DNA of 64,000 bases from Planctomycetota bacterium (GTDB lineage: Bacteria; Planctomycetota; GCA-002687715; DRQF01). Below, piece by piece: positions 6,364-42,907 of this stretch. Positions within the stretch are counted from its first letter, which is position 1, and every line of letters begins with the position of its first letter. The notes under the pieces are model-generated. The model saw only the letters and a program-made list of their open reading frames with translations, did no database searches and was not told where the DNA came from. The position numbers and the translations under genes were made by a program. The stretch spans positions 337-64,336 of the forward strand of contig JBLINQ010000005.1 of the NCBI GenBank assembly GCA_047639315.1, read 5' to 3'.

Positions 6364-6369
6364 TCACAT

Positions 6370-6387: not shown

Positions 6388-6512
6388 GACTTTCGATTTG
6401 TGGAGAGAGAAGAATCGGCCCAAATCCGCTCAAACGCAACTTGCGCTCAACCCGGGAAAATGGGGATCTCGGTGAGCAATCAAACGTGCCATCTTAGAGC
6501 GATCAAAACAGA

Positions 6513-6719: not shown

Positions 6720-7081
6720 CGCTTGGTTTCCTCGTTGTTCCTGAGACGTTTGACTCGCCTGCAAAGCGTATTCTACGACTTACTTGTGGATCACTCCCAT
6801 CGTTCTACACCCGCGAAGCCACCACAGGTCTATCATACTGATCGAATCCGCCGACAACAGATATGACCTAAGGAGTTATGAACGACACTGGGAATAACGC
6901 CAGACCAAGGAGTTTCCTTTTGCCAGCCCCCCGCATCTGCTCACGCTTTACCCACAGGCGTCGCTCAAGACACAACATCCCAGTACGGGTGAATTCAATC
7001 TCCGTCGAGATCTCTTGTGAACAATGAGACACCAAGATTCGGTGCGCACTCATCAACATATTCGGCGAGTTTGGCCGCTCG

Positions 7082-7933
7082 ATGCGAGAGAGCAAATTGC
7101 CGCAAAGCTCTGCTGGCGCTTTGCCTTATCGTCTCTGTCTGCACTGGATTGAGTGCTCAATTTCCCTAAATTCTCTACCTAAAATTCATGAGGGCTCAGG
7201 AGTCACAACGAGCGATCTCTCGGTTCCCGGCGTGCCTGAAACATCCGTCGCCGTGGCCTCGAGCACGAACTGGTAATCAGTGCGGCCTAAGCTTGGCAAT
7301 TCATGTTTTGATCCAAGGCATACCGGCCTATTTGGCACCGCCTGTCAGACCAATGTAGATTAGTCTACGAGTGGCGATTGGACGATCGAATGCTGGGTCA
7401 AAAGGACTGGGTCAAACGGATCATTCCTGGTCGGGTCTGACTTTTACACCTCGAACCATTCACCGATCATCAGCGATACTGGGACCAACAATTTCAACAG
7501 GTTGCTTCTCAGGCCGAACGGTTTCAATTCCATCACCGCGAACGAAACCCCCGCCCCAAATACTTGGCAGCATGTCGCCTTCGTGCACGACTCAGTTGAA
7601 TTGACACCTACGACATTCGTTCACAGTGTCAAACAAAGGTCCGTATGGCAGGTGGCAAGAGTCCCCTGGCAGACCGAAGGCTGCGATGGGTTCTTCATTT
7701 GAGGAACGTCGCAATTTCTCTGGGATGGCCTCCTGGATGAATTTCGAATCTGGGGCCGTGTTCTAAGTGAAGCAGAAATCAACTATGGCAGAGACATCGA
7801 GCTGACCGCTAAATCAATCGACCTTGGAGTTGTCAAGGTCATCACTCCGGCCGTTGTGCTACATCAAAGCCCCTATATTCCAATATCCTCGTCGGAAGTG
7901 ATGGGGGTGCGCAGGACTCGTGCAAGGCATTGA
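7082..7933 (+). pseudogene. LamG / concanavalin-A-like domain gene relic interrupted by three in-frame stop codons
   Basis: A single frame reads ...DWTIECWVK...NTWQHVAFVHD...LLDEFRIWGRVLSEAEI, which are LamG hallmarks. That frame contains TAA at 7274, TAG at 7361 and TGA at 7700. No plausible N-terminus is present. Confidence 0.55.
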
Positions 7934-8102
7934 GAGCGCGAGACGCCAAGTCGATGAGGATCTTGCTGAAACTCTCGAATCAACAGACAAAAGGCTTAGA
8001 GAAGCTCATAGGGATGGTTGATTCTTAGGACTTGAATGGTGAGAGCCGTAACTCTCACCATTCGATTCCCCGGCTCAGCAGATCGACATAGGACTGTCCG
8101 TA

Positions 8103-8597
8103 TTACTTAAGATCCTGTCCCAACCAACAGTCCTGAGTCGACATGCCCTTAGCTCCGGCAGCTTTCGCGTGCAGGAATAATTGCATGCGATAGGCAGTCA
8201 TGAATTTCAACGTCGTATTGACGAGTGCGTCACCGAGCGCGGCCTCGCCACCCCATGGATAAGTCACCTTGCGAGTCGTCAAGTCTTCGTCGCTTACCTC
8301 GACCAAGATTTCCTCGATCTTTGCAGCCTGACGATCAGCCTGAGCAGGAAAATCAGCTGGGGCCACATCTCCATCGCCACTCTCAGAGTGAACTTCTTTG
8401 AACTTATCCCAACCGTGAATGGCGCAGTAGGTCGGCAACCAGCCACATGAGCCGATGTAATTCAGCAGCTCTTCGGTATTCCGCGATCCATCAGACAAGC
8501 GGAAATCCATCGTTCCTTCGGGAATCTTGCCGTGGATGTGCTTCAGGACCTTGGTTTCATGGCGAATTGATTCAAGAAATTGATTGCGATCGAACAT
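8103..8597 (-). CDS. DinB-superfamily-like protein (helical bundle), function uncertain
   Basis: 164 aa from the ATG at 8597, with GGAGA 7 nt upstream. The track start at 8786 would run into the divergent promoter region. Confidence 0.5.
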   Translation of the reverse strand: MFDRNQFLESIRHETKVLKHIHGKIPEGTMDFRLSDGSRNTEELLNYIGSCGWLPTYCAIHGWDKFKEVHSESGDGDVAPADFPAQADRQAAKIEEILVEVSDEDLTTRKVTYPWGGEAALGDALVNTTLKFMTAYRMQLFLHAKAAGAKGMSTQDCWLGQDLK

Positions 8598-8788
8598 GGG
8601 GGTATCTCCAGTGAATGCTGACTCTCTTGGGTGCACAACCATGCCGAATCCGTGGGCGATGAAATTATTCCGAATCAAAGGCCTAATTCGATGGTGTGCC
8701 TCGACAATGATATAATGAAAATCTGAGAAGCCAAAACCCAGCGAGAGAATCACGAGCCTATTCGGATCCGTGTCGGCAAAGACCATAA

Positions 8789-9196
8789 ATGAAAATCACA
8801 GCATTTCACCACGTCTGTATTCAAACAGAGCACTATCGTGAGTCGCTCGACTTCTATGTCCAAGGACTTGGATTCGAGATCGTCCACGAGAGCGCTGGTT
8901 TCCATACGCGCGACTTCAACACCTGGCTACGAGGCGGCGGTATGATGATCGAGCTGCAGACACCCAAGGCCGGGACAAATTTCCGTCCATGGTCGAAGAA
9001 CAACGCTGGACCGGTTCATATCTGCTTTGTCGTCGAGAACGTCGAAGACGCCTATCAAGAACTGAAAAATGCAGGGTTCCACGACTTCAAGAACAAGAAC
9101 GGCCAAGAGATCTACGAGATCCTCGGCTCAAAGCTCTTCAAAGTCTGTGCCCCAGAAGGCACCGAGATCGAAATCCGTGATACGGCTGAGCTGTGA
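8789..9196 (+). CDS. VOC (glyoxalase/bleomycin-resistance/dioxygenase) family protein
   Basis: The N-terminus MKITAFHHVCIQTEHYRESLDFYVQGLGFE is typical of VOC fold proteins; 135 aa. Confidence 0.75.
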   Translation: MKITAFHHVCIQTEHYRESLDFYVQGLGFEIVHESAGFHTRDFNTWLRGGGMMIELQTPKAGTNFRPWSKNNAGPVHICFVVENVEDAYQELKNAGFHDFKNKNGQEIYEILGSKLFKVCAPEGTEIEIRDTAEL

Positions 9197-9203
9197 AAGA
9201 AAA

Positions 9204-10445
9204 ATGGTGACTACCCTTATGATTAAATCGAATCTGCTCCCACTCGCCTTCTTCTTCTGTTTCTTAACAGGAAACGTAGATGCCCAAGCGCTCAAAGTCT
9301 ATGTGCTGTGTGGGCAGTCGAACATGCAGGGCCACGCGAAGGTCGAGACCATTGATTACATTGGCGATGACCTCAAGACCAAGCCTCTCCTTAAGATGAT
9401 GCGGACGAAAAGAGGAAAACCCCGCGTCTGCAAGAATGTGTGGATCTCATATTTGACCGCCGACGGCAGCGGCAACGGCGAAGGATTCGGACAGTTGACG
9501 ACAGGCTATGGCGCTCGTCGAAATCCAAAGCAAGATGGCGGCAAGATCGGTCCCGAGTTTACTTTCGGACTGTGCATGGACAAGGCTACGAAAGAGCCCA
9601 TCCTTCTCATCAAAACAGCATGGGGTGGCAAGTCCTTGCACACGGACTTCCGCTCGCCTTCTTCGGGCCCCTATGAATTCACCGAACAACAGTTGGCGAA
9701 TTTTGCCAAGCAAAAGAAAGACATCGACAAAATCAAGGCCGAGAAGATTGCGGCCACCGGCAAGTACTATCGACTGATGATTGATCACGTAAGGAGCGTG
9801 CTGGCAGACATCAAGAGAGTCTACCCCAAGTACAATAAAAGGCGTGGCTTTGAGCTTGCCGGATTCGTTTGGTTCCAGGGCTTTAACGACCTGGTCGATC
9901 GAGACACCTACCCGAACCGCGAGAAGCCCGGCGGCTACGGTCAATACGGCAAAGGCCTTTCCGCCTTTATCCGTGACGTTCGAAAAGATCTCGCGACGCC
10001 GAAACTTCCCTTTGTCATAGGTGTCCTTGGCGTCAACGGCCCACTCGATGAGATGGGGCGCTACAAGGCAGTTTATCGCAACTTCCGTGCTGCGATGGCG
10101 GCACCAACGAAAGAACGCGAGTTCAAAGGCAACGTGGTCGCCGTGCAGACAGCACCCTATTGGGACATCCCCTTAGCCAAAATCGAAGCTAAGCTGGACC
10201 AAGTGAGAGAGCTCGAGAACAAGCTGCGCAGGAAACATAAAGACTCTGCCAATAAGAACGGCGACATGACCAAAGCCGAGCAGAAAGCACATGTGAAGAA
10301 ATTTCGCACGAAGCTCATCAGTAAACGCGAAGAGAAAGTCTACAAACGCGGCGCATCCAATGCCGGCTACCACTATCTCGGTTGTGCTAAGACGATGGCG
10401 CTGATTGGGGAAGCATTCGCCGGTGCCATGCTCAAGATGCAGTGA
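9204..10445 (+). CDS. secreted sialate O-acetylesterase-like (SASA/DUF303, SGNH-type) esterase
   Basis: A signal peptide follows the ATG at 9204 (LLPLAFFFCFLTGNVDAQA). The GQSNMQGH, TAWGGKSL and WFQGFND motifs are present, and the C-terminal tail is lysine-rich. Confidence 0.7.
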   Translation: MVTTLMIKSNLLPLAFFFCFLTGNVDAQALKVYVLCGQSNMQGHAKVETIDYIGDDLKTKPLLKMMRTKRGKPRVCKNVWISYLTADGSGNGEGFGQLTTGYGARRNPKQDGGKIGPEFTFGLCMDKATKEPILLIKTAWGGKSLHTDFRSPSSGPYEFTEQQLANFAKQKKDIDKIKAEKIAATGKYYRLMIDHVRSVLADIKRVYPKYNKRRGFELAGFVWFQGFNDLVDRDTYPNREKPGGYGQYGKGLSAFIRDVRKDLATPKLPFVIGVLGVNGPLDEMGRYKAVYRNFRAAMAAPTKEREFKGNVVAVQTAPYWDIPLAKIEAKLDQVRELENKLRRKHKDSANKNGDMTKAEQKAHVKKFRTKLISKREEKVYKRGASNAGYHYLGCAKTMALIGEAFAGAMLKMQ

Positions 10446-10460
10446 AAGCTCAAGTTCCTA

Positions 10461-10913
10461 CTAATTCGACAAGAACCGAACGAGCACGGCAAAAAGAAGA
10501 AGCATCTTCAGGGTCCAGAATACAGTTCGCAGCCAATTCGTCTTGACGAGCTTATCGATCTTCGCGGCGTCACGCTGCTGACTCAGCGTTTCATGTAGCG
10601 GTACGCTCAAGAAGAAGGTGCTGAGCCAAACGAGGACCACAAGGATCAAGTTGGCATAAACAAAGGGCGTCCAAAACGAGACGTCCACTCTCGGAACAAT
10701 CCAAACAAGAGCGATCCCGGTGATGAGTTCGATGACCATGGCGGGAATAACAACCCAACACATGGCACGAGTATGGAACTCCTCAAATTCGACAAAACGC
10801 TCAGGGTCTACCCAACGAAACGTCGGGTAGTGAACCAACTGGATGGTCCAGATGAGGCCAGTTAAATAGAGGGTCGTGCCACAATGAAGCAGAAAGACTA
10901 ATTGTGTGAGCAT
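10461..10913 (-). CDS. four-helix membrane protein (possibly DUF1772-like)
   Basis: 150-aa ORF with 4 hydrophobic segments. The family name is a tentative recollection. Confidence 0.45.
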   Translation of the reverse strand: MLTQLVFLLHCGTTLYLTGLIWTIQLVHYPTFRWVDPERFVEFEEFHTRAMCWVVIPAMVIELITGIALVWIVPRVDVSFWTPFVYANLILVVLVWLSTFFLSVPLHETLSQQRDAAKIDKLVKTNWLRTVFWTLKMLLLFAVLVRFLSN

Positions 10914-18403: not shown

Positions 18404-21400
18404 TTAGAGGTGACGTCGTACTTTCGATTTTGATTCAACAGACTCATCATCGGTGTAGCCACCCAGGTCTCGGATGATTTGCTCGTAGCCTTCTAAGTCG
18501 AGCATCCCCAGACTTTGCACAGTCCGAACCGCGATCATCTGCTCGCTCCAACTCGAAGGGCGTTCGCCGGCTTCGAGCAAGATACCGTAAACGTGCTCAA
18601 TCGGATCCACTCCCTCCGGCAGGAGCTCGTCTAAGTTTGCCAGATGTTTGCGCGCCACCTTGTGACCATGATCGAGTGAAGCCGCCAAGATACGCAACAT
18701 GCTTTCATTGGTCTCTGGGTCAGCAATGAATTCCCAGTATTTCTCGACTTTGGCGAGCGTCTTCTTCGACAGGCGGAACCGCTGCCAGCGAGTCTCTTCT
18801 TTAGGCAAGCGATGGATGACATCGCGGAGTTCGGCAATGGCGCTCAAGATAGAGTAGCTTCCTAAGTGATCACAGGCGAATGCTGTGGCCACGACGCGCA
18901 TGGCCTGCCCTTCCCTACCGACGAGATTCTCATTGCGGGCAACAATGTCGTCCGCGATCTGGTGACCAGCCTCGGCTTGGTCGCGCAAGAATCGTGACAA
19001 GACTCGAATCTGCTGTTCGCGCTTGGTCTTGATCTCTCTGAAGTTTTGCCAGTCTCGTTCCGATGCGTCGAGACGGCGCAAGTCTTCAACCAAGAGGTCT
19101 TCGGGGCGGATGGAGTCTTCCGTGATGCCAGGAATGGCGATACCGAGATACTCAACGTCAAAAAGCGCACGCAGACGCACTGTTTCCATCACCACGGGTC
19201 GCCGCATGCGATGGATCTTTCGACGAGCCACTTCAAACCCAGAACGTCCGGCGCTGACTTTGAGAGGCCGATCGTTCGGATTGAGAACATCCTTCACGAT
19301 GAGGACGATGCGCTTAATCAGAAGGCGAACGCCACAAAGGACAAGCCAAACCAAGATCAGCGGGAAGGCAAACACGCGGCCTCGAGCGAGGTACTTGCGA
19401 TAGAAACGATATGGATTGATCGTCCGCTTCGACTTAGCCAACTCGTGCATGGGGAACGTGCCGAAGATATCGCGAATGAGATTCTCACGATCTTCGAGGA
19501 GCAAATTGGCGACATCATCGCCAAAGCGCGACCGAATCGCGTTGTCTCTCTTCTCTTCCTTGGTCAAGAAGTTAAGAGCATTAAATTCGGTGGTGCGATA
19601 AACAAGCGTACCGCCCGAGCTGTCGGTCGTTTGCGACTCATCGGTCGTCAACACTTCATTGCGGCGACGAGCCAATGAGATGCGCTCACGACGGGCGAGC
19701 CAAGCGTCAAAGATGCGGCGATCTTCGGCGTCAGCGGCGTTGTACTCGTCGACAGGAATGCAATGTTGATTGTATTCGATGATGAGTCGGGCCGTGTGCT
19801 GCGCCACACTATGAGTGATGAAGTTAAACCACACGCGTGGCCCGGAGATGCCGCCCTTATCACGAGCAATGTCGAGACGATCGAGTCTCTTGAAACGCTT
19901 GGCATCAAACTGAAGGCGATTGCGGCGAATGTTCTCAAGGGTCAGATTTCCCACCAAGATGTTCGCGATCTTGGTGTCGTTCTTATGGAAATAAGCACCG
20001 TCGATGAAATCGCGATAGTAGAGCATCATGGCATCACACATCGACCATGGCAGTGGTGATGCTTCATCATTGATGTTGTCTTGCTTCTGACAAACGGCGA
20101 AGAGTGCACTGCGGGCGACCTCGCGCTCGGCTACGGCTTCTTCGGGAACAAGAAGCTTGTGCTCGGGCATGAGGACGCGCTCGACCAAGTAAGACACGTC
20201 TCGGTCGCCGTGGACTTCTTTGGCAGTCTCAGTTAACGCGAAGAACTGGGCCTCTGAAACGCGATCGAAGAAATCGACGGCTTGACCAGCAATGCGTCGG
20301 AGCCAGAGTCCGAGCGCAAGAGGAATAAAGCAGACGACACCTAAGACGATGATCGGAAACTTCAAGGCATCTCGAAGTGAGTCGACACCTTTGATGAAAG
20401 CCGGCACCTGCGTGAGCCAGGCCATGCCCAAGATAACGCTGATCACAACGACAAAGATGACCAATCGCTTTGCCGGTCTAATGGTCGCCTTGACCAGTTG
20501 AATGCCAACTCGATCAAGGAACTGCGCCCCAGTAATAGTGCCGTAAAGATCGGCGAACCAATGAATACCACGAGCAACCCAGGCCAGGAGATCTCCAGAG
20601 AGTCGTCCTAAGCGGGCTGTGGTCCACAGAGGATCAGGTGCTCCGCTTGGTCCAAGGAGGAATCTCGAAAAGGCGAAATGACGCAGGAACGGCAAGCGGA
20701 AAAAACTCAGGGACGCAGTCAGTTGACGCGCCACATCGACGCCAACGATTTCGGCGACTTGATTGTCATCAAGCCCTCTCAGGTTATCGACCACACTGTC
20801 AACATCGAGATCGCGAATTCGTTCTTCGCCGTGCTTCCTCTTGACCGAAGCTGCTGCCACACCACCGTCATGGCACGAGAACTCGGCTTCGATTAAGCCC
20901 ATGCGCCATTCAGCCCCAACGATTTGCGCTTCAACTGGCAGGCCCTTCAGCACATTCGATGTCCTACCGGCGATCCACGAGTCAATGTTGCGAGCTCGGC
21001 TCAGAAGAGTGAGGTTTGACTCAGCTTGCTCATCCTCCGTAGCGAAGACGATATTCTGATTGAGGAACCACGAGTTGCGCTCGACCAAACGATCGGCGGC
21101 ACGGGCAAGGAATAAGAAGAGCCGCGACAAGCGAATGATTGGGCGCAACACGCGCAACACTCTTGCAACCCGAACCAAGCGAGCCGTTCGAATGAAGCGT
21201 AACTTGTCGACTGCCATCAGTCCTTGCAGTAATCCAAAAGGCAACGACGGCAGAAACTCAGTGATAAAATTTCGACGGAAATAAGCCAGGCGCGATGGAC
21301 TGAGAAGGAGGCGGATCATGAAGTCCCAGAGAAGAATGAGGCAGATGAGGGTATCGACCCAGACGGTCCAGCCGATCGTCGACCAAATGCCCTTGCCGAT

Positions 21401-22666
21401 TTCTTCCCAGTCTTCTTCCCCTTGGTCTTCGCTTTGTTGCTCGACCACTTCTGCCTGTGCAACTTCCTCTTCGGTTATTGATGGTCCGCTAAAGTGATCG
21501 ATGACGATGAGTAGCATCACCACCATAATCAACCAGAAGATCATTTTCTCCCAGCGTTTCACTTGCCGCGGGCCGAAGGTGCGATCGAGGCGTAGCGACA
21601 AAATCCGATCGGCAATCACAGAACCCATACGACGCACCATGCGTCTTAGCTTTCGATCCGCGCGCTTGCCAGCCTTCGCATTTTCTTCGCCGACCTCATC
21701 GGCTGGCAAAGAGCGAATGCGCTTGGCGACGGCCTTCATGCCGGTGACGAAGTTCTTGCCGTCAGTCTCCAAGCACTGAAGGACTTTGACTTGGCCGATG
21801 GTGCGATCTTCATAGGAATCCATCCGCGCTTGATCGATCTCGCCGGTGACCCAGCGTGACGCTTCAACTGCGATATCGAGTCCGTCTTTGTCCTCGGTCG
21901 TCTTCATGAAGAGGACAAAGAGGTCACGGAGCCGTTCACTTTCACACCGGAGCTCTTGCGCGACCGTTGACAAAGATTCCCGGGCGCCTTCGTGGGCGTT
22001 TTCAATTCCTAATTCAAGATGGAAGGAAGCGCTCGATAGGGATCGTGATAGCCGGAAGACGCGATAGGCGTCTGACAACTCACACTCTTGGATCTGCTTG
22101 GCCGCTTCGAGTTGGTGCTCGGCTTGCGCTTTGAGCACTTCGGCCCGCAACGACATGATTTCGATTTTGGCCGCTCTGATTGTTTCGTTGTCATACAAGA
22201 TGTCTTCGGCGGCGCCGGTATCGACTTCTTCTTCACCATCAAGACCGTTGTCAATGTCGCGCAATTCCTGAATGAGGAATGGCGTTTCGTCGCGCGCTTC
22301 TTTTTCTTCTAACCCGCGAGTCAAACGAAGAAGGAGACGAGCAACGGCTCGCAGCACGGCGCAACGCCGGGCAGTCTCGGCATCATCGGCGTCAGTATCG
22401 CGAAAGAACTCCCGCGCCGATGACTCGAGTTCTTCCAAGCCGAGGGCGAGCTGATCGAGGCAGGCGCCGTCTTCTCCCTTGGGGTGAAAGCCCTCTAAGC
22501 CCTTGGACGCCAGGAGTGCCTTTTCCCAAAGGACAACTGCATCTGACAGCTGGCAACCAACGCGCGCGACATTGCGTAGCTCAACCACAGCCCCATGCAT
22601 GACGGAGAACGTCTCGCGCATCTTGGCTTCCGAATCTCGGAATTCTTGTGGGTTGTTTTGATCCAT
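18404..22666 (-). CDS. 1420-aa multidomain membrane protein containing a voltage-sensor-like (S1-S4) module
   Basis: Uninterrupted ORF. Residues ~371-525 comprise 4 TM helices, the last being RTARLVRVARVLRVLRPIIRLSR with Arg at every third position. Three further TM helices lie at ~734-755, ~769-790 and ~1085-1110. Confidence 0.8.
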   Translation of the reverse strand: MDQNNPQEFRDSEAKMRETFSVMHGAVVELRNVARVGCQLSDAVVLWEKALLASKGLEGFHPKGEDGACLDQLALGLEELESSAREFFRDTDADDAETARRCAVLRAVARLLLRLTRGLEEKEARDETPFLIQELRDIDNGLDGEEEVDTGAAEDILYDNETIRAAKIEIMSLRAEVLKAQAEHQLEAAKQIQECELSDAYRVFRLSRSLSSASFHLELGIENAHEGARESLSTVAQELRCESERLRDLFVLFMKTTEDKDGLDIAVEASRWVTGEIDQARMDSYEDRTIGQVKVLQCLETDGKNFVTGMKAVAKRIRSLPADEVGEENAKAGKRADRKLRRMVRRMGSVIADRILSLRLDRTFGPRQVKRWEKMIFWLIMVVMLLIVIDHFSGPSITEEEVAQAEVVEQQSEDQGEEDWEEIGKGIWSTIGWTVWVDTLICLILLWDFMIRLLLSPSRLAYFRRNFITEFLPSLPFGLLQGLMAVDKLRFIRTARLVRVARVLRVLRPIIRLSRLFLFLARAADRLVERNSWFLNQNIVFATEDEQAESNLTLLSRARNIDSWIAGRTSNVLKGLPVEAQIVGAEWRMGLIEAEFSCHDGGVAAASVKRKHGEERIRDLDVDSVVDNLRGLDDNQVAEIVGVDVARQLTASLSFFRLPFLRHFAFSRFLLGPSGAPDPLWTTARLGRLSGDLLAWVARGIHWFADLYGTITGAQFLDRVGIQLVKATIRPAKRLVIFVVVISVILGMAWLTQVPAFIKGVDSLRDALKFPIIVLGVVCFIPLALGLWLRRIAGQAVDFFDRVSEAQFFALTETAKEVHGDRDVSYLVERVLMPEHKLLVPEEAVAEREVARSALFAVCQKQDNINDEASPLPWSMCDAMMLYYRDFIDGAYFHKNDTKIANILVGNLTLENIRRNRLQFDAKRFKRLDRLDIARDKGGISGPRVWFNFITHSVAQHTARLIIEYNQHCIPVDEYNAADAEDRRIFDAWLARRERISLARRRNEVLTTDESQTTDSSGGTLVYRTTEFNALNFLTKEEKRDNAIRSRFGDDVANLLLEDRENLIRDIFGTFPMHELAKSKRTINPYRFYRKYLARGRVFAFPLILVWLVLCGVRLLIKRIVLIVKDVLNPNDRPLKVSAGRSGFEVARRKIHRMRRPVVMETVRLRALFDVEYLGIAIPGITEDSIRPEDLLVEDLRRLDASERDWQNFREIKTKREQQIRVLSRFLRDQAEAGHQIADDIVARNENLVGREGQAMRVVATAFACDHLGSYSILSAIAELRDVIHRLPKEETRWQRFRLSKKTLAKVEKYWEFIADPETNESMLRILAASLDHGHKVARKHLANLDELLPEGVDPIEHVYGILLEAGERPSSWSEQMIAVRTVQSLGMLDLEGYEQIIRDLGGYTDDESVESKSKVRRHL

Positions 22667-27728: not shown

Positions 27729-28706
27729 TCAAGCCCAGAATTCGGGTTCGCTCACATACCAGACGCCACGTTTCTTGACGAGTTCACGATCCGTCGGGGC
27801 GATTTCATCCGTGATGTCATCTTCCAGAATCCGATAGACCTGTTGAACTCGAGCCAAGAGCGCGTCGGGGAAACGTTCACGAACGCGAGCTTGGGATAAC
27901 TCAAGCGCTTCGGCGAAGCTCAAAGCCGAGAGCCCAAAACCAAAGAACCCGAGCCTTGCTGAAGTGCTCTCGTCAAAACTCAAGTCCAGTTCGAGGTGGA
28001 CCCAGAATGGAGTCAGAGTTCCTTGAGGCACACCTTCATCGGCATTGACCGGAATCATGCCCAAGCTTTCGACCAATGAGAACTTAATGTCGTACTCATC
28101 CATCATTGAGTTTTCTTCGACGACAAGGATGTCACGGTGCTGATGTTCGAAATTTTCGATGCAGGGAATATCGTTGATTTGAGGAAGGCCAAGGTTGGCG
28201 ATCATCTCTTCGACTTCTTCGCGCATCCTCAAACCACATGCGACATAGATGGTGCCGTGCTCTTCGATGAAGACTTCAATGGCTGGCTCTTGTGCGACAG
28301 CTCCAAAACCACAGCGACCGGCTTCGATTAGATACTCACCATAAGTATTCCAAGCCTGTTGAAGTCGGTTGCGTTCGACTGGCTCCGAAGATCGGTAGGC
28401 GTCAGAATCGCGAAAGGCATCGAAAGACAACTCTTCGAAGAGCGCATACACCTCGTTCGGCAGTAATCGTTCCAACATCTTGGCCACGGTGTCAACGACC
28501 AAGTCGGCGGAAAGAAGAATTCGATATTCGTATTGATCGTCGACAAGTTCGTCACCGACGACAAAGCGAGAGTCATACCCCTGAGAAAGATTGACATCAT
28601 CGCCACACGGATAAACACCGATCGGACAGTGAACATCACCAAATGTCTTGCGCCCAAGGCTGCTCCTAATCTTGTAGGGAGCGTGTACCAGGGGTGAGTT
28701 GGGCAT
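27729..28706 (-). CDS. hypothetical acidic protein, no recognisable motif
   Basis: 325-aa ORF with consistent coding appearance. I could not recall any family signature for it. Confidence 0.55.
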   Translation of the reverse strand: MPNSPLVHAPYKIRSSLGRKTFGDVHCPIGVYPCGDDVNLSQGYDSRFVVGDELVDDQYEYRILLSADLVVDTVAKMLERLLPNEVYALFEELSFDAFRDSDAYRSSEPVERNRLQQAWNTYGEYLIEAGRCGFGAVAQEPAIEVFIEEHGTIYVACGLRMREEVEEMIANLGLPQINDIPCIENFEHQHRDILVVEENSMMDEYDIKFSLVESLGMIPVNADEGVPQGTLTPFWVHLELDLSFDESTSARLGFFGFGLSALSFAEALELSQARVRERFPDALLARVQQVYRILEDDITDEIAPTDRELVKKRGVWYVSEPEFWA

Positions 28707-29104: not shown

Positions 29105-29914
29105 TCACAAAGTTAGTGAGACAACCACAGCTGCGATCAGAGTGGTGGCTACCGCGATGCCGATCAAGATCTTGGTCGAGAGAAAGCCCACGGCGGTCCG
29201 CTTGGTCAGACTCGGAATGAGCCTCACTTCTTGACCTAACTCGTCCGCCGCTGGGACGATACATGGATCGACCGGAACGCATTCATAGACTCGGTCTCGG
29301 ATCTTGATGTGCCCACTGAGCCCACGCTTCGACAATTCGGATTCATAACCGCGGTAGTTGCCCAAAACCTGAGCTTTGGCGGCGTGGAGGACATCAATCG
29401 GCCGCTTTGTGGTCATGCCGATCTTGTGCATCTCGGGATTCCATACGGACTTCCGACTCAAGAAGAGACTGCTCCTGTCACTATCAGCGTCGTCGTAAGT
29501 CTGAACTAACAAGGGAAGTTCTTCTGGCTTACGCGACAGGCTCTCGAGTTCGGCCAGAAACTCAAAATAGTGCTTCACTGAATCGTCCGATCCTGGATCT
29601 CGGTCGTCAAGATAGATGATGGCATCAGCAGCTCGGTAGATCAGAACGTCATTTGATGGGGATTGAAGTTCACCCGGCCGAGCCATGACGTCGATCATCA
29701 CCTTCATGCCAAAGAGGCTATCGGCGTCGTCTAAGGGCCACCGAAATCCAACGATTCGGTCGCCACCAGCATGTATGACCGTTAGATTCTCAGCGCCGGC
29801 GTCGAGGAGGCAATCATGCAATTCCCGCACAGTCGCGAACTTGGTCGACTTCTGCTGCCCCGACAAGATGATCCGGAAAATGATTTCCTGGTTGTCGATT
29901 TTGATTTCAACCAT
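29105..29914 (-). CDS. MglA-like small-GTPase-fold protein with degenerate nucleotide motifs and a C-terminal TM anchor
   Basis: It aligns by eye to MglA: EIIFRIILSGQQKSTKF vs KIVYYGPGLCGKTT, DRIVGFRWPL vs DRTLFFDFLPL, LLVQTYDDAD vs VIQYNKRDL. The C-terminal helix is ILIGIAVATTLIAAVVVSL. Confidence 0.6.
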   Translation of the reverse strand: MVEIKIDNQEIIFRIILSGQQKSTKFATVRELHDCLLDAGAENLTVIHAGGDRIVGFRWPLDDADSLFGMKVMIDVMARPGELQSPSNDVLIYRAADAIIYLDDRDPGSDDSVKHYFEFLAELESLSRKPEELPLLVQTYDDADSDRSSLFLSRKSVWNPEMHKIGMTTKRPIDVLHAAKAQVLGNYRGYESELSKRGLSGHIKIRDRVYECVPVDPCIVPAADELGQEVRLIPSLTKRTAVGFLSTKILIGIAVATTLIAAVVVSLTL

Positions 29915-29920
29915 CGGAAA

Positions 29921-32900
29921 TTAGTCCCTGTATGTCTCAATAGCGCCGTGAACATCGCCGGCAACCAGAACGCAGCGACCATCGTATCGGAACGAGATTG
30001 ATCGCGAACCAGACTGAGAACGTAATCCGTGCAAAAGCTTGTCCTGTTCGGCATTGAGAAGGACCTGCGAACCGTCTTCGAGTTCGACCAAGAATTCACT
30101 CCGGTCCAGTGGATAAATGACACCCGTGCTCTCACGCAAAAGAGCCTTCCACTTCTTTCCCAGGACTCGTGTCTGATCGTTGCTACCAATCTCCAAGATG
30201 CCGCCATCTTTGAGAACTCCAAGGAGCCTGGTTCCTGAACGCACTAAGTTACCTTTGATCCGTCTCTCGAGGTCGAACTTAACTGAGCTCTGAAGGTCAC
30301 GTGTAAGCCGGTGCAAACGTCCGAGAATGTCGGTCACAAAAATGGACTGGCCGTGAATGACTGGCTCGCCGTTGTAAGTACCCAAAACTGTCTTTTCGAT
30401 CTTCCGCTTCGAGACATCGATCTCCAGCAAAGACCCAGCTTCATCAACAGCAAAAACACGGCCGGAATCTTCAACGAGATGCAAGATCGGCGACTTGAGT
30501 TTGATCGGATTAGGAAACTCGTTGCCCTTGTTGTCCAAGAAGATAATCCTGGGATTACCGTCATGAGTCGCAACGACGTAGGTCGTACCATGAACAACCA
30601 ATCCAGCGATGGGATCCAAGGAAACTCTCGTATCCCAGTTCTTCGGATCCTTCTTTTCGGCATCAAAGAACATCACGTGCCCTTCGGTTGTCGCGAAAAC
30701 GGCGCCGCCGTTGGCAATAACCAATCCTGTGCATGGGCTCACAAATGACTCTGATTCGACACGCCGAGGTTTCGCGCCCAATGTTTCGGCGCGATAGACG
30801 ACACCGTTGCCAGCCAAGAATACGACCGCTCGACCGTCCAAGGCGACATCGCTGATTCGATCACCAATCTCGCGCCTTTCGGCCGGCAATTTTTCAAGTA
30901 CCACGATCGACTGAAACGGGCTTTCTTCCCAAGATAGGCGCCGCTCTTTGGCGCGGAATCCTGGACGTGAGATTTCGTATTTTGCGTTGGGTGATTCGGC
31001 GGTGAGCTGCAATCGCTTGACACCCCTTGAGTCGAGATTTTCGCGGTCAGAAATAAGGGCGTCAACAGGAGCTGCTATGATCTCGAAAGGAACCCGTAGC
31101 TGTGCCAGCGTTTGCCTGGAGACAACGCGGATCGACTCGATACTGAGCTGATCACGACTCTCTGCGAAGAAGTTCTTTCGAGCCTTTTGATGGGCTGTCT
31201 CGAATTCCCCGTTCGCCAAGTGCTGCTCGATTTCTTTCAGCGCCTTGGTTTCTCGCGTCAGGTGTTCTTCGATCTCTTTCATCCGTCCAGGAATTTGCCG
31301 AGATTCATGTGCGCCCCACGACTGTTGCGAAGATGACCTTAATTCGGCCCAAGCTTTTTCATATGCAGCCAAAGAGTTCTTGAGATCCCCTAAGATCAGG
31401 TGGCTCTTAGCGCGACTAACATGGTCATCAGCCCGCTTACGGCTCTTCTTCTCTTCCTCACGCAACTCCACTTTCGACAGCTGGAACTTTCGCCGTAGAT
31501 TGTGGACTTCGCCAAGGGCACGAGTTTCGTCATCCTTGGCATTCGACGCGGTCATAGTCAAAGGGAAACGATCGGCAATACCAGCGTATCGTTGCGCCTG
31601 AGCTTGCCAACCTTCCTGCGTCACGATGTTCGTTTCAGCTTCATGAATTTGGTCGTACGCAGCCTCTGCGGTGTTGTGATAATAGAGGTATGCGATAATC
31701 GTGGTGACGATCATGACGACAGTGACAAAGAACGCCAAACCCGCCATCTTCTGACGCTTCTGTTGATCCAGTTGACGTTCGATCTCTTGGATCTTCTCGA
31801 GGCAGATATCTTTGGTGACCGAGTCGAAACTGACCACGAGCTTGTAGGCACCAAGAGCTCCCGCGAGATCTCCCATGGCGTGCATTCTGGCCGCCAAGCG
31901 CATGTAGGTCTCGATCGCTTCGTTAATCTGTCCGTTCTTCGCTAAGACTCGCGCCTGCAAGAACGATAACCCAATGTCGTCGGGAGCAATCGTCAAGAGA
32001 TAATCTAAGATCCGTTGCGCATCGGAGTAGCGCGCCGATTCAAAGTAGAAGCTGCACAGTTTCAATCCAAGATCGAAGGTTTCGTGATCCTCATTGTTGA
32101 GCACATCTTCGAGCTGTGAAAGGAGACACAAACCCTGCTCTAACGCACGGAAGTCCGTAGGTAGGATTCCCATCAAGTATTGATAGATGGCTAGAGCTTC
32201 ACGGACTAGCCCTTTCTCAACTAAGGCGATAGCGCAAAACTTGTAATGAGAGGCGGCCTTGGCAATTCGATTTTCACGGAGGTAGGCCTGAGCCAAGCGT
32301 TTGTGCAAGGCGATACTACGACGGTCGTAGCGCACCGCACATTTGAACAGACGAATCCCATCTTCATGGCGGCCGTCTATAACCAACTGGTCACCGACCT
32401 CGATCAAATCATCCAATTCGAGCTTGCGTACGTTGCCACGCTCCTTCAGATTCGAAAGGGCAAGGTCGACGTGGTATCGGGGAAGTCCAGTGGCGTTCGT
32501 GATCTCTGGAGAGCCGCAAACATTATCGATGTGATTGAAAACGATCCTCTCGACGGCGGAAAACTCCAACCCTATCGAGCCCGATTCTGAAGTCGTCTGA
32601 GCCCAAATATGCTTGCCACCGCCGATTTGGTCGATCACTCTCGCCCATTCATCTTGGCGGCGAGCCGCTTCCATGACGGTCAGGTCGAGAACGAAGAATT
32701 GGCGATTCGGGTTTTCTTCTGGCCACGACTCTTCGTCCAGATTGAAGCTGACGTTCTTCCAGAGGAAGATCTCGAGGATCAGCTCCTCGTGAAGCCTGCG
32801 GGTAGCGCCTTCAACTTGCTCCCTGGTGATGGTCCCTCTTTTCTCAAGGAATTCCACCGCGGGAACCTGAAACTGCCCCGACTTCGTCAAGGCATCGGTG

Positions 32901-33124
32901 TAATCGTCGTAGCTCAGCTCTCCTTGATCCACCAAGATCGCGGCCAAATCCTGATTCTTGGGCATCTCCAAGAGTCCAATTCGATCGGCGTCGAGAACCA
33001 GGGCCCGTTTCTCAAGAATATTTTCGCGATTCTGGAGACGGAGAACTCCCTGTTTTCGATTCATGGCCAACATCTGGAAGACATTGGACAAGTCGATACT
33101 CAGTAAATCACCTCGAATGGCCAT
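29921..33124 (-). CDS. DUF4388(PATAN)-TPR-transmembrane-beta-propeller protein, 1067 aa
   Basis: The N-terminus RGDLLSIDLSNVFQMLAMNRKQGVLRL matches the DUF4388 signature. TPR-like helices span ~250-450, a single TM lies at ~460-482, and the C-terminal ~350 aa has a repeated beta-strand pattern. Confidence 0.7.
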   Translation of the reverse strand: MAIRGDLLSIDLSNVFQMLAMNRKQGVLRLQNRENILEKRALVLDADRIGLLEMPKNQDLAAILVDQGELSYDDYTDALTKSGQFQVPAVEFLEKRGTITREQVEGATRRLHEELILEIFLWKNVSFNLDEESWPEENPNRQFFVLDLTVMEAARRQDEWARVIDQIGGGKHIWAQTTSESGSIGLEFSAVERIVFNHIDNVCGSPEITNATGLPRYHVDLALSNLKERGNVRKLELDDLIEVGDQLVIDGRHEDGIRLFKCAVRYDRRSIALHKRLAQAYLRENRIAKAASHYKFCAIALVEKGLVREALAIYQYLMGILPTDFRALEQGLCLLSQLEDVLNNEDHETFDLGLKLCSFYFESARYSDAQRILDYLLTIAPDDIGLSFLQARVLAKNGQINEAIETYMRLAARMHAMGDLAGALGAYKLVVSFDSVTKDICLEKIQEIERQLDQQKRQKMAGLAFFVTVVMIVTTIIAYLYYHNTAEAAYDQIHEAETNIVTQEGWQAQAQRYAGIADRFPLTMTASNAKDDETRALGEVHNLRRKFQLSKVELREEEKKSRKRADDHVSRAKSHLILGDLKNSLAAYEKAWAELRSSSQQSWGAHESRQIPGRMKEIEEHLTRETKALKEIEQHLANGEFETAHQKARKNFFAESRDQLSIESIRVVSRQTLAQLRVPFEIIAAPVDALISDRENLDSRGVKRLQLTAESPNAKYEISRPGFRAKERRLSWEESPFQSIVVLEKLPAERREIGDRISDVALDGRAVVFLAGNGVVYRAETLGAKPRRVESESFVSPCTGLVIANGGAVFATTEGHVMFFDAEKKDPKNWDTRVSLDPIAGLVVHGTTYVVATHDGNPRIIFLDNKGNEFPNPIKLKSPILHLVEDSGRVFAVDEAGSLLEIDVSKRKIEKTVLGTYNGEPVIHGQSIFVTDILGRLHRLTRDLQSSVKFDLERRIKGNLVRSGTRLLGVLKDGGILEIGSNDQTRVLGKKWKALLRESTGVIYPLDRSEFLVELEDGSQVLLNAEQDKLLHGLRSQSGSRSISFRYDGRCVLVAGDVHGAIETYRD

Positions 33125-33413
33125 GCAGGGATCCTCGCACGTGGTTCATGGGTGCCTCTGCATTGATCGAGGAACCCAGAGAAAACTCTGATTGTCTTAT
33201 CGGCTAAAAGAGCCACAATGGATGAGAACGAATGGTGATGGACTTGTCACATTTTTTGGCTTGAGCTCCTGACACCGCGGCATGCCTAAGTTACTTCAGG
33301 CAATAGAGTTAAGTCTGATCGGCCCGAGAATGGCACATTTCGGATAGGTTGAGTAGAATCCCAGACCTGCTATGGGTTCGCTAATTAGGCAGGTTGAGCC
33401 CGGAGGGGAAGCC

Positions 33414-33995
33414 ATGAATTCCAACGACAATCGAACACGATCGACCACTAAAAGAGCTTGGCTCAATGTGAGTGGCCGCTGGCAATTCTTCCGGGGGCGG
33501 AGCTGCCATAGCTTCGATTTGTCCTACGAGAAATTCCACCGCCTGCTTGACCTCAATCCCCATTCTTTCACCGCCCACTTCTATCTTGGCCAGATCGCTC
33601 GCGAACGGGGCCAAGCCCGATTGGCTTTTGACCACTACTTGGCCGCCTATCGCAGCTCAGTTACCGCCTTCAATCGGAGCAAATTGCCCGATGATCTCAA
33701 GAATCACATCGCTCTGCGCCATGGACTTAGTCGCTCAAAGCGCGTCGTTTTCCATGAGCTCGGCCAACAAACTGGTCCCAGCATTATTCGAGCTGAATTT
33801 GAGGCCATCGATCACACCGGATTTGGCCGCCATCCAGAATTTGAGATCCATCTGCCTCAAAATCAGGAAATTGGTGTCACCGATTTCAGCAGCACTGAGG
33901 AAGCCCAGAAGTTCGAAGACCGGGCGCCAATTTCCCAGGAAGAACTCGAGTCAGTAGACCTGGAAGTGCTCATCAGCCAGTTGATGGCTGAATAA
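33414..33995 (+). CDS. hypothetical protein with a TPR-like segment
   Basis: ATG at 33414, preceded by GGAGGGG; 193 aa. Confidence 0.5.
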   Translation: MNSNDNRTRSTTKRAWLNVSGRWQFFRGRSCHSFDLSYEKFHRLLDLNPHSFTAHFYLGQIARERGQARLAFDHYLAAYRSSVTAFNRSKLPDDLKNHIALRHGLSRSKRVVFHELGQQTGPSIIRAEFEAIDHTGFGRHPEFEIHLPQNQEIGVTDFSSTEEAQKFEDRAPISQEELESVDLEVLISQLMAE

Positions 33996-40648: not shown

Positions 40649-42907
40649 TTAGTTGAGCGAACGCTTGCGCACCCACCCGTCACCCGAGCCGCCGCCGTAG
40701 TTGGCCAAGAAGGGGTTAACCAATGGGAACGGAATTGGCGACATGCAATTGGTGAAGTTGACCTCACCGTTAATGCATTGACTGTAACCACAAGTCGTAA
40801 CGCCCGTGTCGTTCACAGCGATTCCCAATGACATCTCGTAGTAGCTCACACCATAGAGAGCGCCATCTTCAATCGCACCAGTCGGGCCAAAGCGCACCCA
40901 GAAGGCATCGTGGTTTCCAGGAACGATTTCTGAAATACCCGAGTAAAAGGCGGTACCATTGCGTTGAACAATATCGAGCCCGGCATCGTATTGATTCGAG
41001 CCAAAGACAATGCTGTACTTGAAGTCAAAGAGTCCCAAGCCTTGCGGGTACATCTTGGTCAAGAATGTATCGGAGGTTCCGGTTGTGAGGAACTGTGAGT
41101 TAAGCAAAGGGAAGTTCAAAGAATTCGTTTCTCCGGTCATATACACTTCGCCAGTATTCTTGTCGACATCCAAAGCGTAGATGTAATCATCGCCTGTGCC
41201 ACCCAAGTAGCTGGCGTACAACAAGTCAGAAAAACCATTGTTCCCCGGATCCATGATCGCCATGAAGCCATCCTTGCCACCACGGTTGATTGGCACAGCA
41301 ACATTGACATTGCCGATCGTAGGATGCAAAGAGAGGTCAAACGTCGAGAACGTCTCGCCACCGAGGAATGCCAAGTCGAATGGGCCAATCGCAACGTCGT
41401 AAATGATGTTGCTGGTGGCGTCGCCGATGAAGGTCGAATAAATCGGTGAAGCGGAACCTGGATTGATGACAGTAAAGAATCCGTCTTCCAGACCGCCATA
41501 GTAGGATTGGTAGCAATTCGTTGTGGTTGGGAAATCATCGGAATCAGTCCAACCGACAATGTAAGCCCAACCGTTGTCACGCAAAGCCAATCCGTAAGCG
41601 AAATCAAAACCTGATCCGCCAAGGAAAGTGCTGTACACGATCTGGGATCCATCAGCACTAATAATGGTGTAGAAAGAATCTGCTGCCGATGGCACCTTTG
41701 TTGATTGCATGGCGTTTGCAGTAACTGGGAAGTTGGCTGCTTCGGTGAAGCCAACAACATGGACATCGCCATTGGCAGACAATTGAATGTCAAAGGCCCA
41801 GTCAGCACCACCAGTGATCAAGAAGTCAATCGGATCGCCACCACCCAGGTAGCCACTCCAATGTTGGAAAGTTCCGGACTTGTCGAGCTTCATGACAAAG
41901 GCGTCGGCGATCTCGCCGTTATACGTTGGGTCAAACGAACCAGCAGTGACTGGCCACCCTGGCCCGAAGCCCATGATCGCTGGGTTTGAATGTGTACGAC
42001 CACAGACATAAATATGACCTTCGAGGTCCATCTGAAGGTGAATGGTGTGATCGGTGCCGTTGCCACCCATCAAAGTGCTGAAGATGACAAACGGATCGAT
42101 GACCAACTCATACTTGTTGTCATACTCTCCGAGCTTGAAGCTGGCTTCATTCTTTTCGTTCAGGACAAAGGAAACAGCAACTGGCTTCTTAACGCCATCA
42201 ATAACTTGCCATGCGACAGGAGCTTCCTCGCGAACCACACCGCCAACACCAGCACTTTCGTCGGAAAGACCCAAGACAATGTCGCCTTTGGCGTCGATCG
42301 CCACACTCTTAGCGCCAACGTAAGTCCAACGGATGTCCGATGGGTCAGACCCAGGCGCAACCTTGTAGGTTCCCTTGAGTCGTCCGGTCGTACCGTTGTA
42401 CAACAGGTCAATGCCCGAGTAGAGACCTTCGTAGGTAATGTCGGCGAAAGTGGAAACGCCCGTGTTCCATTTCTTCTTGTCGTTGCCGTAGAAGAAGTTG
42501 TTCTTGCCGCGCAATGGTTTGCTGGCTTTCAGGTGAACGCCATTCTCGGCGCCAAGGAATTGCACACCAATCGGAATGCTCTTTGACGCTGGTTTGGCGA
42601 CAGTGCCAGTATTGACTGGCAATGACAAAACCACACCGCCCTTCAGCATGGCGACACTACCGCCGGCACCGCGAGCTTCGAACTGGACGTTTGCTACGTT
42701 TTGACCGTGATTGAAAACGAAACCTAATGGCAAGGCGCCAAGTTGGGACATCACTTTCGATTGCTCCGCAGGTTCTAGGTCACGAAGCAACTCATTCTTC
42801 TTCTCGTTGATTTGCTCTTTTTCTTGAGCAAAAGCCGGCGCCTGAATGGCGACGGCGAGAAGAATTGCGGCGCAGGCCACGAGTTTGGAAAAGAATCGAA
42901 CGTTCAT
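40649..42907 (-). CDS. secreted SBBP (beta-propeller repeat) protein
   Basis: Signal peptide MNVRFFSKLVACAAILLAVAIQAPAFA. The motif LPLGFVFNHGQ...VQFEARG is present, and D.AY(G/A)(I/L)A(V/L)D-like repeats occur throughout. Confidence 0.7.
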   Translation of the reverse strand: MNVRFFSKLVACAAILLAVAIQAPAFAQEKEQINEKKNELLRDLEPAEQSKVMSQLGALPLGFVFNHGQNVANVQFEARGAGGSVAMLKGGVVLSLPVNTGTVAKPASKSIPIGVQFLGAENGVHLKASKPLRGKNNFFYGNDKKKWNTGVSTFADITYEGLYSGIDLLYNGTTGRLKGTYKVAPGSDPSDIRWTYVGAKSVAIDAKGDIVLGLSDESAGVGGVVREEAPVAWQVIDGVKKPVAVSFVLNEKNEASFKLGEYDNKYELVIDPFVIFSTLMGGNGTDHTIHLQMDLEGHIYVCGRTHSNPAIMGFGPGWPVTAGSFDPTYNGEIADAFVMKLDKSGTFQHWSGYLGGGDPIDFLITGGADWAFDIQLSANGDVHVVGFTEAANFPVTANAMQSTKVPSAADSFYTIISADGSQIVYSTFLGGSGFDFAYGLALRDNGWAYIVGWTDSDDFPTTTNCYQSYYGGLEDGFFTVINPGSASPIYSTFIGDATSNIIYDVAIGPFDLAFLGGETFSTFDLSLHPTIGNVNVAVPINRGGKDGFMAIMDPGNNGFSDLLYASYLGGTGDDYIYALDVDKNTGEVYMTGETNSLNFPLLNSQFLTTGTSDTFLTKMYPQGLGLFDFKYSIVFGSNQYDAGLDIVQRNGTAFYSGISEIVPGNHDAFWVRFGPTGAIEDGALYGVSYYEMSLGIAVNDTGVTTCGYSQCINGEVNFTNCMSPIPFPLVNPFLANYGGGSGDGWVRKRSLN

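Follow-up and report, generated by a model that had tools for sequence, protein, structure and literature searches.

Among bacterial Ras-like polarity switches, MglA serves as the model. In the forms known so far it is a soluble protein, about 195 amino acids (aa) long in the canonical case, and it cycles with MglB, a Roadblock protein which is the GTPase-activating protein (GAP) of MglA. The present analysis concerns a 64,000-nucleotide (64-kb) stretch of DNA from a marine Planctomycetota bacterium (contig JBLINQ010000005.1), hereafter called the window, and in it a pair of adjacent genes on the minus strand: the first codes for a 1067-aa protein that starts with a PATAN (DUF4388) domain, and the second for a 269-aa protein related to MglA, which we call pseudo-MglA. 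Our reading, to which we give a probability of about 0.6, is that the two proteins make up a membrane-bound complex descended from an MglA/MglB-type switch, with a pseudoGTPase acting as an adaptor docked on a transmembrane (TM) scaffold.

Several ingredients of this proposal are already known, namely the association of PATAN with MglA, the existence of tetratricopeptide repeat (TPR) effectors of MglA and the concept of the pseudoGTPase. PATAN genes are repeatedly found next to mglA/mglB (PMC4316618; bioRxiv 10.1101/2021.06.11.447907), and an earlier examination of the window (the original prediction) was right to mention this genomic linkage. The TPR protein SgmX is an effector of MglA-GTP (PMC11580455). 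The characterised PATAN proteins, i.e. PatA, the PixG/PixE/TaxP-type regulators and Myxococcus xanthus SgnC, share the N-terminal position of the domain with the protein of the window, but they are soluble proteins, most of which carry a fused receiver domain, whereas in the window PATAN heads a TPR-TM-propeller membrane protein. A parallel in layout is GltJ, which functions in the gliding of M. xanthus: like the 1067-aa protein it is a single-pass inner-membrane protein, its cytosolic domains bind MglA-GTP and its periplasmic domain connects to envelope machinery (PMC11135422). It is not a homolog, however: its domains are of the ZnR, GYF and TonB-C types and the MglA-GTP that it binds is soluble. 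The actinobacterial conservon CvnA-D also co-encodes a membrane sensor with MglB-like and MglA-like proteins (PMC4316618), but it senses through a histidine kinase, has an intact GTPase that is soluble, and contains neither a PATAN domain nor a propeller. As to G domains that have lost catalysis and serve as interaction modules, the examples are eukaryotic (CENP-M, AAGAB and p190RhoGAP; PMC12490416), and a scheme of pseudoGTPase classes is mentioned in the same source. These three proteins are unrelated to MglA and provide an analogy only. Another eukaryotic analogy, again not a close homolog, is SR-beta, a membrane-anchored Arf-like small GTPase whose partner, the SRX domain of SR-alpha, is longin/Roadblock-like; SR-beta has an N-terminal anchor and is catalytically competent.

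Ancestry and motif decay of the 269-aa protein

Scans of the 269-aa protein against Pfam and NCBIfam returned nothing, even at E≤1, and the family to which it belongs is currently outside the models of both collections. Searching the PDB with the single sequence gave Thermus MglA as best match, with a marginal E-value of 0.011. A profile made from the alignment of the seven closest sequences (A1), run against the whole PDB, matched nothing but MglA entries, with E-values of 2.2e-8 (Thermus, 3t12) to 2.7e-5, three M. xanthus MglA sequences being matched at about 2.5e-5 over aa 4-188. With the AlphaFold2 (AF2) model as query, the first seven Foldseek matches were MglA (E of about 3e-9, target-normalised TM-score 0.70), followed by Ras, Ral and Rab. 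Conversely, a hidden Markov model (HMM) built from 91 intact MglA domains gave the 269-aa open reading frame (ORF) a score of 59 bits, and its identity to one intact MglA (P0060) is 28% (E=8e-15). Since family profile, structure comparison and intact-MglA HMM agree, the 269-aa protein is a true MglA homolog, as had been proposed from its alignment with MglA.

The AF2 model has an overall pLDDT (AF2's per-residue confidence score) of 73. The G domain is modelled with confidence (means of 65-95 for 10-residue blocks across aa 11-200), aa 207-244 are disordered and a terminal helix spans aa 242-268. TM segments were called at a Kyte-Doolittle value of at least 1.6, on the basis of hydropathy together with an AF2 helix, and the lone hydrophobic segment of the protein lies at its extreme C-terminus, where a TM helix had been predicted. 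By hydropathy it is thus a tail-anchored protein, whose G-domain part would be cytoplasmic. Between G domain and anchor lies a region of low pLDDT, from aa 198 onward, that is probably flexible; within it, A1 shows no variation at H202, K204, I205, R206, D207, R208, Y210 and E211. A corresponding pattern, H[IVL][KR]IRDR[IV], is confined to a subgroup of 13 representatives, which we call Tier 1, and is found in none of the Tier-2 sequences of the family.

A word-indexed search found only six relatives of the 269-aa protein. Exhaustive profile search of 1.84 billion representative sequences gave 838 matches at E≤1e-3, of which 40 reached E≤1e-10 and 15 reached E≤1e-30. For the top 150, the residues at the motif positions and the hydrophobic segments were compiled, and this separates about 35 degenerate representatives (239-277 aa; clusters at 50% identity) from 104 relatives with canonical motifs. 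Metagenomes were scanned with the Tier-2 alignment A4. Among species-level genomes, 5 of 185,579 carry the family, all of them metagenome-assembled genomes (MAGs) of Planctomycetota. As a side observation, the best match of the 269-aa protein in a collection of 5.8 billion proteins is at 67% and none is at 100%, while the product of the neighbouring 325-aa ORF (ORF325) is matched at 100% by a Planctomycetota MAG with locus tags ACI97A_. The absence of a 100% match for the 269-aa protein may mean that its gene was not called in the source annotation, or that the word index missed it.

The two groups differ sharply at the positions on which nucleotide binding and hydrolysis depend in MglA. At the Walker-A motif, the second glycine (position 24) is present in all 104 intact relatives and in none of the 35 degenerate ones, and the Ser/Thr (position 26) in 104/104 versus 1/35. 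The Mg-binding threonine of switch I, found in 99/104 intact sequences, is absent from the degenerate group (0/35), where Ile, Val, Leu or Phe stands in its place (Ile54 in the window). The catalytic glutamine (89/104 intact) has given way to a variable position (Arg in 9, Glu in 8, Pro in 5, Ala in 4, others), occupied by Glu in the window. The Asn of NKxD is likewise invariant among the intact (104/104) and lost from the degenerate (0/35, Tyr in 29/35), and its Lys, kept in 101/104 intact sequences, is not among the residues seen in the degenerate family. All 35 degenerate members have a C-terminal TM segment. The original prediction had read the nucleotide motifs as degenerate, and this holds for the family: homologs do not keep G1-G4 either, so the decay is not specific to one strain, and the replacement of NKRD is confirmed by the G4 column. 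Its P-loop reading, SGQQKSTK, was correct as to degeneracy but one residue out of register, for the GPGLSGKT of MglA pairs with G19-QQKS-T24-K25-F26.

Compared with MglA of M. xanthus and Thermus thermophilus (PDB 3t12, 6h17 and 6izw), the G fold and the sequence register match, and both the arginine finger and a G3 of the form x-x-P-G (with no Asp) are kept; what has been lost are the Walker-A Gly and Thr, the switch-I Thr, the catalytic Gln and NKxD, what has been added are a linker and a TM anchor, and no Roadblock gene is nearby. In other words, four of five sequence features of MglA (G1, G2, the G3 glutamine and G4) are missing and the arginine finger is the one that is present. In a neighbour-joining (NJ) tree rooted with an outgroup, the degenerate sequences formed one clade without a single intact sequence inside it in 20/20 bootstraps (midpoint rooting was set aside, as it put the root inside the long-branched degenerate clade). 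The exclusiveness of this clade argues for a single decay event at the origin of a conserved clade, with the decayed state maintained afterwards; full-length ORFs, the G-domain core and the anchor persist from 67% down to about 21-28% identity. Maintained decay of an entire clade would be the signature of a pseudoenzyme and not of a dying gene. With a G fold that is kept, nucleotide motifs that are lost and a conserved monophyletic family of intact ORFs, the 269-aa protein should, on its sequence, be filed as an MglA-derived pseudoGTPase and not as MglA.

The large protein, its pairing and the intact modules

The 1067-aa gene ends with a TAA stop codon, and 6 nucleotides (nt) separate it from the 269-aa gene; the sizes, coordinates and spacing of the two ORFs had been given exactly in the original prediction. 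Its account of the large protein also stands as regards a PATAN N-terminus, TPR-like helices, one membrane crossing and a C-terminal repeat region resembling a beta-propeller (Table 1); the coiled coil that it placed before these repeats is a putative one. PF14332 is likewise above cutoff in the homologs of L009 and L010. TPR_19 exceeds its cutoff (E=1e-9, 38.8 bits versus 25), and NCBIfam finds weak similarity of the TPR region to TPRs of the MamA/SycD type. The TM helix is preceded by KRQK and followed by an acidic stretch; the positive-inside rule would then place PATAN and TPR in the cytoplasm and the propeller in the periplasm, and we infer a single-pass inner-membrane protein with N-terminus in and C-terminus out. 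The propeller assignment, PQQ_2/BamB-like by Pfam match (PF13360, E=3.4e-11, 43.7 bits versus a cutoff of 27.6), is accompanied by a weak WD-type match at aa 1014-1065, and homologs match PQQ_2 and Beta-prop_ACSF4. No Response_reg domain was found in the protein by Pfam, and its architecture is not the PATAN-REC type of PatA, since TPR, TM and propeller come after PATAN.

The order and spacing of the two genes recur. The PATAN gene precedes pseudo-MglA by 1-6 nt in the window and in L004, L005, L009, L011 and L013, and directly precedes it in L010. Some of these loci lie on long contigs, L009 on JACKGY010000005, L010 on JAWKSY010000001 and L011 on a contig of 3.99 Mb (ERZ25073254 ctg89735). 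In the Tier-2 loci L021 and L022, a co-directional upstream ORF, truncated by the end of the contig, stops 3-6 nt before pseudo-MglA; that of L022 is a homolog of the large protein's periplasmic part, with PQQ_2 above cutoff. Both proteins diverge faster than housekeeping proteins and in step with each other, if GcvH is taken as yardstick. Identities to the window are 87% for GcvH, 66% for pseudo-MglA and 62% for the PATAN protein in L004; 76, 42 and 32% in L011; 67, 39 and 36% in L013; and 47, 26 and 22% in L020, where the MglA is intact.

This last locus belongs to a set of relatives that provide the likely point of departure. Of the 104 intact relatives, 21 are tail-anchored, and three of these that were examined in their contigs (P0061, P0060 and P0066, in L018, L020 and L025, respectively) lie in the same kind of operon, in which a PATAN-TM-PQQ protein, a TPR protein and two Roadblock proteins are encoded together with the tail-anchored MglA. 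The MglAs of these modules retain GPGxSGKT, DRTLF, TVPGQ and NKxD. TPR is fused to the PATAN protein in L020 and L025, not in L018. The 1067-aa protein is collinear with the 1063-aa PATAN protein of L020 over 905 columns (E=3e-29); the TM helices coincide, and that of the L025 homolog lines up with them as well. L020 also adjoins gcvH/gcvP, as the window pair adjoins gcvT-H-P, while L018 and L025 are short contigs that contain no gcv genes.

The pair of the window thus shares with the intact modules the architecture of the PATAN partner, the tail anchor and the operon order, and differs from them in that the GTPase motifs are lost and neither the two Roadblock genes nor the separate TPR gene is present. 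Since the nearest intact relatives are tail-anchored and reside in PATAN/TPR/Roadblock operons, one of them beside gcv genes, the window pair appears to be a derived, stripped-down form of a PATAN/TPR/Roadblock/MglA module. This changes one element of the original prediction, according to which the protein had gained a C-terminal extension of about 90 aa: the extension and its TM anchor exist, but they were probably inherited, because intact tail-anchored MglAs occupy the same kind of operon. The linkers of the latter are about 110-210 aa long (of low complexity in P0066), and by this comparison the linker of the window protein seems to have shrunk.

Within these contigs, two candidate genes were considered and rejected: a 257-aa gene of L018 is not a pseudo-MglA but codes for a TPR protein, and a 293-aa gene of L025 is not a homolog of ORF325, its product being secreted and unrelated. 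Separately, a tail-anchored MglA-domain protein of 411 aa with intact GKT and NKRD (P0147; L027 4340-5575, L028 4268-5503) is encoded between lgt and recJ without PATAN or Roadblock neighbours; because its context is unrelated, tail anchoring is not exclusive to the PATAN module.

The loss of the Roadblock genes was looked for directly. None was detectable, even at E≤10, by a Roadblock/MglB HMM in the six-frame ORFs of the 64-kb window, in agreement with the original prediction, or in the Tier-1 loci, and none was detected wherever loci with the degenerate MglA could be examined. The same HMM finds one or two matches in each intact locus, and Pfam identifies the second one in L018.

Proposed mechanism and its alternatives

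How might such a module work, and what would remain of it in the window? By analogy with the systems mentioned above, the ancestral module could be a trans-envelope device: the GTP/GDP state of a tethered MglA, set by the Roadblock proteins, would govern how it associates, reversibly, with PATAN and TPR on the cytoplasmic side of a receptor-like scaffold, whose propeller would contact a periplasmic or outer-envelope component. Binding would thereby couple a cue or an anchor in the periplasm or envelope to a cytoplasmic output, for which placement of polarity, envelope or pilus-type machinery is a candidate. In the lineage of the window, the GTPase would have become a pseudoGTPase that is unable to cycle and serves the scaffold as a constitutive adaptor subunit, and the loss of cycling would make the GAP/Roadblock genes dispensable. 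That the G domain was frozen as an adaptor is the simplest reading, because the Mg2+ ligands, the catalytic glutamine, the guanine-specificity motif and the GAP genes are all gone. A candidate point of contact is HIKIRDRVYE (aa 202-211) in the linker, which may be a peptide ligand of the fused TPR domain, since it lies in a flexible region and is found only in the subgroup in which the partner with fused TPR is adjacent.

Several points weigh against this reading. G19, K25 and P80-G81 are retained, which leaves room for residual binding of phosphate or nucleotide. L023 and L024 have no PATAN gene within 8 kb of pseudo-MglA. Much of the evidence from adjacency comes from one syntenic region of related Planctomycetota, so that conserved gene order is a weaker argument than it appears. 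The Roadblock HMM was built from three sequences and its sensitivity is limited; moreover, the view is that of 64 kb of a genome, the rest of which could contain Roadblock genes or a canonical MglA/MglB pair. Finally, the phylogeny is an NJ tree only, which does not settle the sister group of the degenerate clade.

The retained residues bear on the alternative that survives best, i.e. that the protein is still a working nucleotide switch, albeit a non-canonical one, which would bind GTP, another nucleotide or a phosphorylated ligand through G19, K25, P80-G81 and D142, in each case without Mg2+, and would be controlled by regulators other than Roadblock. We consider this unlikely, but it deserves attention, since these positions are strongly conserved: G19 in 35/35 degenerate members, K25 in 32/35, P80 in 33/35, G81 in 34/35 and D142 in 28/35, to which may be added R53, the counterpart of the intrinsic arginine finger of MglA (Arg in 30/35, Lys in 2/35). 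The replacement motif [SA]-T-K-F is itself conserved and thus not random, and some eukaryotic pseudoGTPases still bind nucleotide. Yet such a switch would have to operate with hydrophobic residues in place of both Mg2+ ligands (the P-loop Ser/Thr and the switch-I Thr) in essentially all members, with a catalytic-glutamine position that is free to vary and with neither the Asn nor the Lys of NKxD; even K25 is replaced, by N, R or T, in three clusters. The Roadblock genes which all three intact modules possess are, as said above, not detected alongside the degenerate form.

A second alternative is that the two proteins are not partners at all, their adjacency being inherited synteny, and that pseudo-MglA acts alone at the membrane or with a partner encoded elsewhere. 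The chromosomal slot has gcvTHP on one side and, in most lineages, DUF1844-pyrG-kdsB on the other, and it occurs in five states: the intact module of five genes (state A; L020); the trio of PATAN gene, pseudo-MglA and 325-aa orphan (state B; L005, L011 and L013); the same trio with a rearranged right flank (state C; the window, L001 and L004); pseudo-MglA alone (state D; L023 and L024); and the 325-aa gene alone (state E; L015 and L016). As the whole region is syntenic across the clade, gene order could persist by shared ancestry, and state D also speaks for this alternative: a 239-aa tail-anchored degenerate MglA of Tier 2 (positions 8001-8720 in both L023 and L024) stands alone between gcvT and DUF1844-pyrG-kdsB, with the PATAN gene and ORF325 missing from the site. 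Pseudo-MglA can therefore persist without a partner encoded in cis, and these loci weaken a model of obligate pairing, provided that their genomes do not carry the partner gene at another site. On the other hand, mere synteny does not readily account for a same-strand spacing of 1-6 nt kept from 67% to about 39% identity, for the homolog of the large protein directly preceding pseudo-MglA in the Tier-2 locus L022, or for the matched divergence of the two proteins. The combination of a PATAN-propeller protein with a tail-anchored MglA recurs, too, in three intact loci, and its recurrence in L018 and L025 is a better argument for linkage than shared synteny. We therefore find it doubtful, and more so than a non-canonical switch, that the two are no partners.

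Two observations on individual loci may be noted here. In L010 (10001-10801) the C-terminal half of pseudo-MglA is read in the wrong frame and lacks both linker motif and TM segment, and in L005 (6981-9996) the PATAN gene is split into ORFs of 592 and 417 aa on a long-read contig of 3x coverage; both are probably artefacts of assembly or frameshifting.

Lastly, that the 269-aa ORF is a decaying relic without function, as its lack of Pfam and NCBIfam matches and its lost catalytic motifs could suggest, is very improbable in view of full-length ORFs, a conserved fold modelled with good AF2 confidence over the G domain, 57 invariant columns in A1 and a tail anchor in 35/35 members across deep divergence.

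We hold a wider proposal at even odds: that there is a conserved and so far undescribed bacterial module for transmembrane signalling or polarity, in which a PATAN-(TPR)-TM-propeller protein is the receptor or scaffold and the other members are a tail-anchored MglA, a TPR protein and a pair of Roadblock proteins, and that one planctomycetal lineage turned its GTPase into a pseudoGTPase and discarded the GAPs. In open-access papers and bioRxiv preprints we found no description of a tail-anchored, membrane-anchored or pseudo-GTPase MglA, and in the open-access literature none of a PATAN-TM-propeller/TPR/Roadblock/MglA operon or of an MglA-derived pseudoGTPase clade, which agrees with the remark in the original prediction that the module was not a recognised one. 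If the proposal is true, the protein would be, to our knowledge, the first MglA-derived bacterial pseudoGTPase to be reported. With an MglA that is tethered to the membrane and connected to a receptor-like PATAN-propeller protein, the known repertoire of small-GTPase signalling in bacteria would come to include a trans-envelope format, and the enigmatic PATAN domain would gain a concrete partner that can be tested. The two forms together would constitute a natural before-and-after pair for the passage from small-GTPase switch to static adaptor. Since intact and dead versions exist in related lineages, the order in which the Mg2+ ligands, the catalytic glutamine, the guanine specificity and the GAP genes were lost can be reconstructed, and what a G domain does once it has ceased to be a switch becomes testable with two orthologous systems.

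Features and neighbourhood of the pair

Table 1. Positions of the features discussed, in the window and in the three loci with intact modules
Locus	Feature	Position	Strand	Basis
Window	1067-aa gene: PATAN, TPR, TM, helical region, PQQ-type beta-propeller; predicted single-pass membrane protein	29921..33124	-	ORF list, Pfam
Window	PATAN / DUF4388 (PatA_N), aa 4-161, predicted cytoplasmic	32642..33115	-	PF14332, E=2.9e-16, 60.1 bits (cutoff 25), profile 1-122 of 122
Window	TPR region, aa ~250-440, predicted cytoplasmic	31805..32377	-	TPR_19 at aa 361-413; sub-threshold TPR_1/2/16 at aa 251-295
Window	Single TM helix, aa 460-483	31676..31747	-	Lone hydrophobic window, Kyte-Doolittle maximum 2.44
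Window	Putative periplasmic beta-propeller region, aa ~750-1067	29924..30877	-	PQQ_2/BamB, two stretches, best aa 752-864
Window	269-aa gene: tail-anchored, motif-degenerate MglA homolog (pseudo-MglA)	29105..29914	-	ORF list, profile, Foldseek, HMM
Window	G-domain-like fold, aa 1-196	29327..29914	-	AF2 alternating beta/alpha; MglA alignment at aa 4-188
Window	Walker-A remnant G19-QQKS-T24-K25-F26 (MglA GPGLSGKT)	29837..29860	-	Alignment to MglA
Window	Switch-I remnant A49-G-G-D-R53-I54-V55	29750..29770	-	Alignment to MglA
Window	G3 remnant A78-R-P80-G81-E82 (MglA T-V-P-G-Q)	29669..29683	-	P and G kept
Window	G4 remnant Q138-T-Y140-D-D142 (MglA Q-Y-N-K-R-D)	29489..29503	-	Alignment to MglA
Window	Linker motif G198-LSG-HIKIRDRVYE-CV between G domain and anchor	29276..29323	-	Conservation in A1
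Window	Predicted C-terminal TM tail anchor, aa 247-269	29108..29176	-	Kyte-Doolittle maximum 2.67; AF2 helix aa 242-268
Window	325-aa orphan gene (ORF325), syntenic neighbour, module membership doubtful	27729..28706	-	Synteny
L018	PATAN-TM-PQQ propeller (806 aa, TM 266-295), TPR protein, Roadblock/LC7 x2 (90 and 117 aa), tail-anchored MglA (337 aa)	188-5112		
L020	PATAN-TPR-TM-PQQ (1063 aa), TPR protein (399 aa), Roadblock, tail-anchored MglA (439 aa), Roadblock	3072-9911		
L025	Five genes, as in L020; a membrane Ser/Thr kinase-TPR gene immediately before them and a gene for a secreted 293-aa protein downstream	1364-10562		

The annotated surroundings of the pair in the window contain housekeeping genes only (gcvTHP, lplA, anmK, a sigma54 regulator, a HAD hydrolase and others), and motility or pilus genes were not found among them, so that the neighbourhood gives no hint of function. 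An anti-phage defence system was considered and rejected: PADLOC gave no match for the 1067-aa, the 269-aa or the 325-aa protein.

ORF325 follows the pair in all Tier-1 loci, and it occurs without the pair, beside DUF1844-pyrG-kdsB, in L015 and L016; it is absent from the Tier-2 and intact loci. Its family comprises 17 clusters, and in spite of a confident AF2 model (pLDDT 87) it has no sequence or fold match in the PDB. A promoter-like site (28804-28777, 10 of 12 positions matching) lies just upstream of it. We rejected it as a stand-in for MglB/Roadblock, there being no PDB match and no signal with the Roadblock HMM, and also as an obligate third subunit, in view of its occurrence alone in L015/L016, its absence from Tier-2 and intact loci and its own promoter-like site.

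On the other side of the pair, a 207-aa ORF with weak TPR matches (33372-33995, plus strand) is divergent from the PATAN gene. Genes of 188-190 aa occupy its position in L004 and L005, and the position is empty in L011 and L013. Possibly it has replaced the separate TPR gene which the intact modules possess, or is what is left of that gene; its sole link to these modules is a weak TPR-TPR similarity to the TPR protein of L025 (E=2e-6). Farther away, a 1420-aa ORF without any Pfam match (18404-22666, minus strand) is conserved in L001 and L004, where genes of 1394 and 1412 aa take the corresponding place. A 752-aa protein (40649-42907, minus strand) combines DUF7948 (E=1e-52) with an SBBP beta-propeller repeat and is unrelated to the module.

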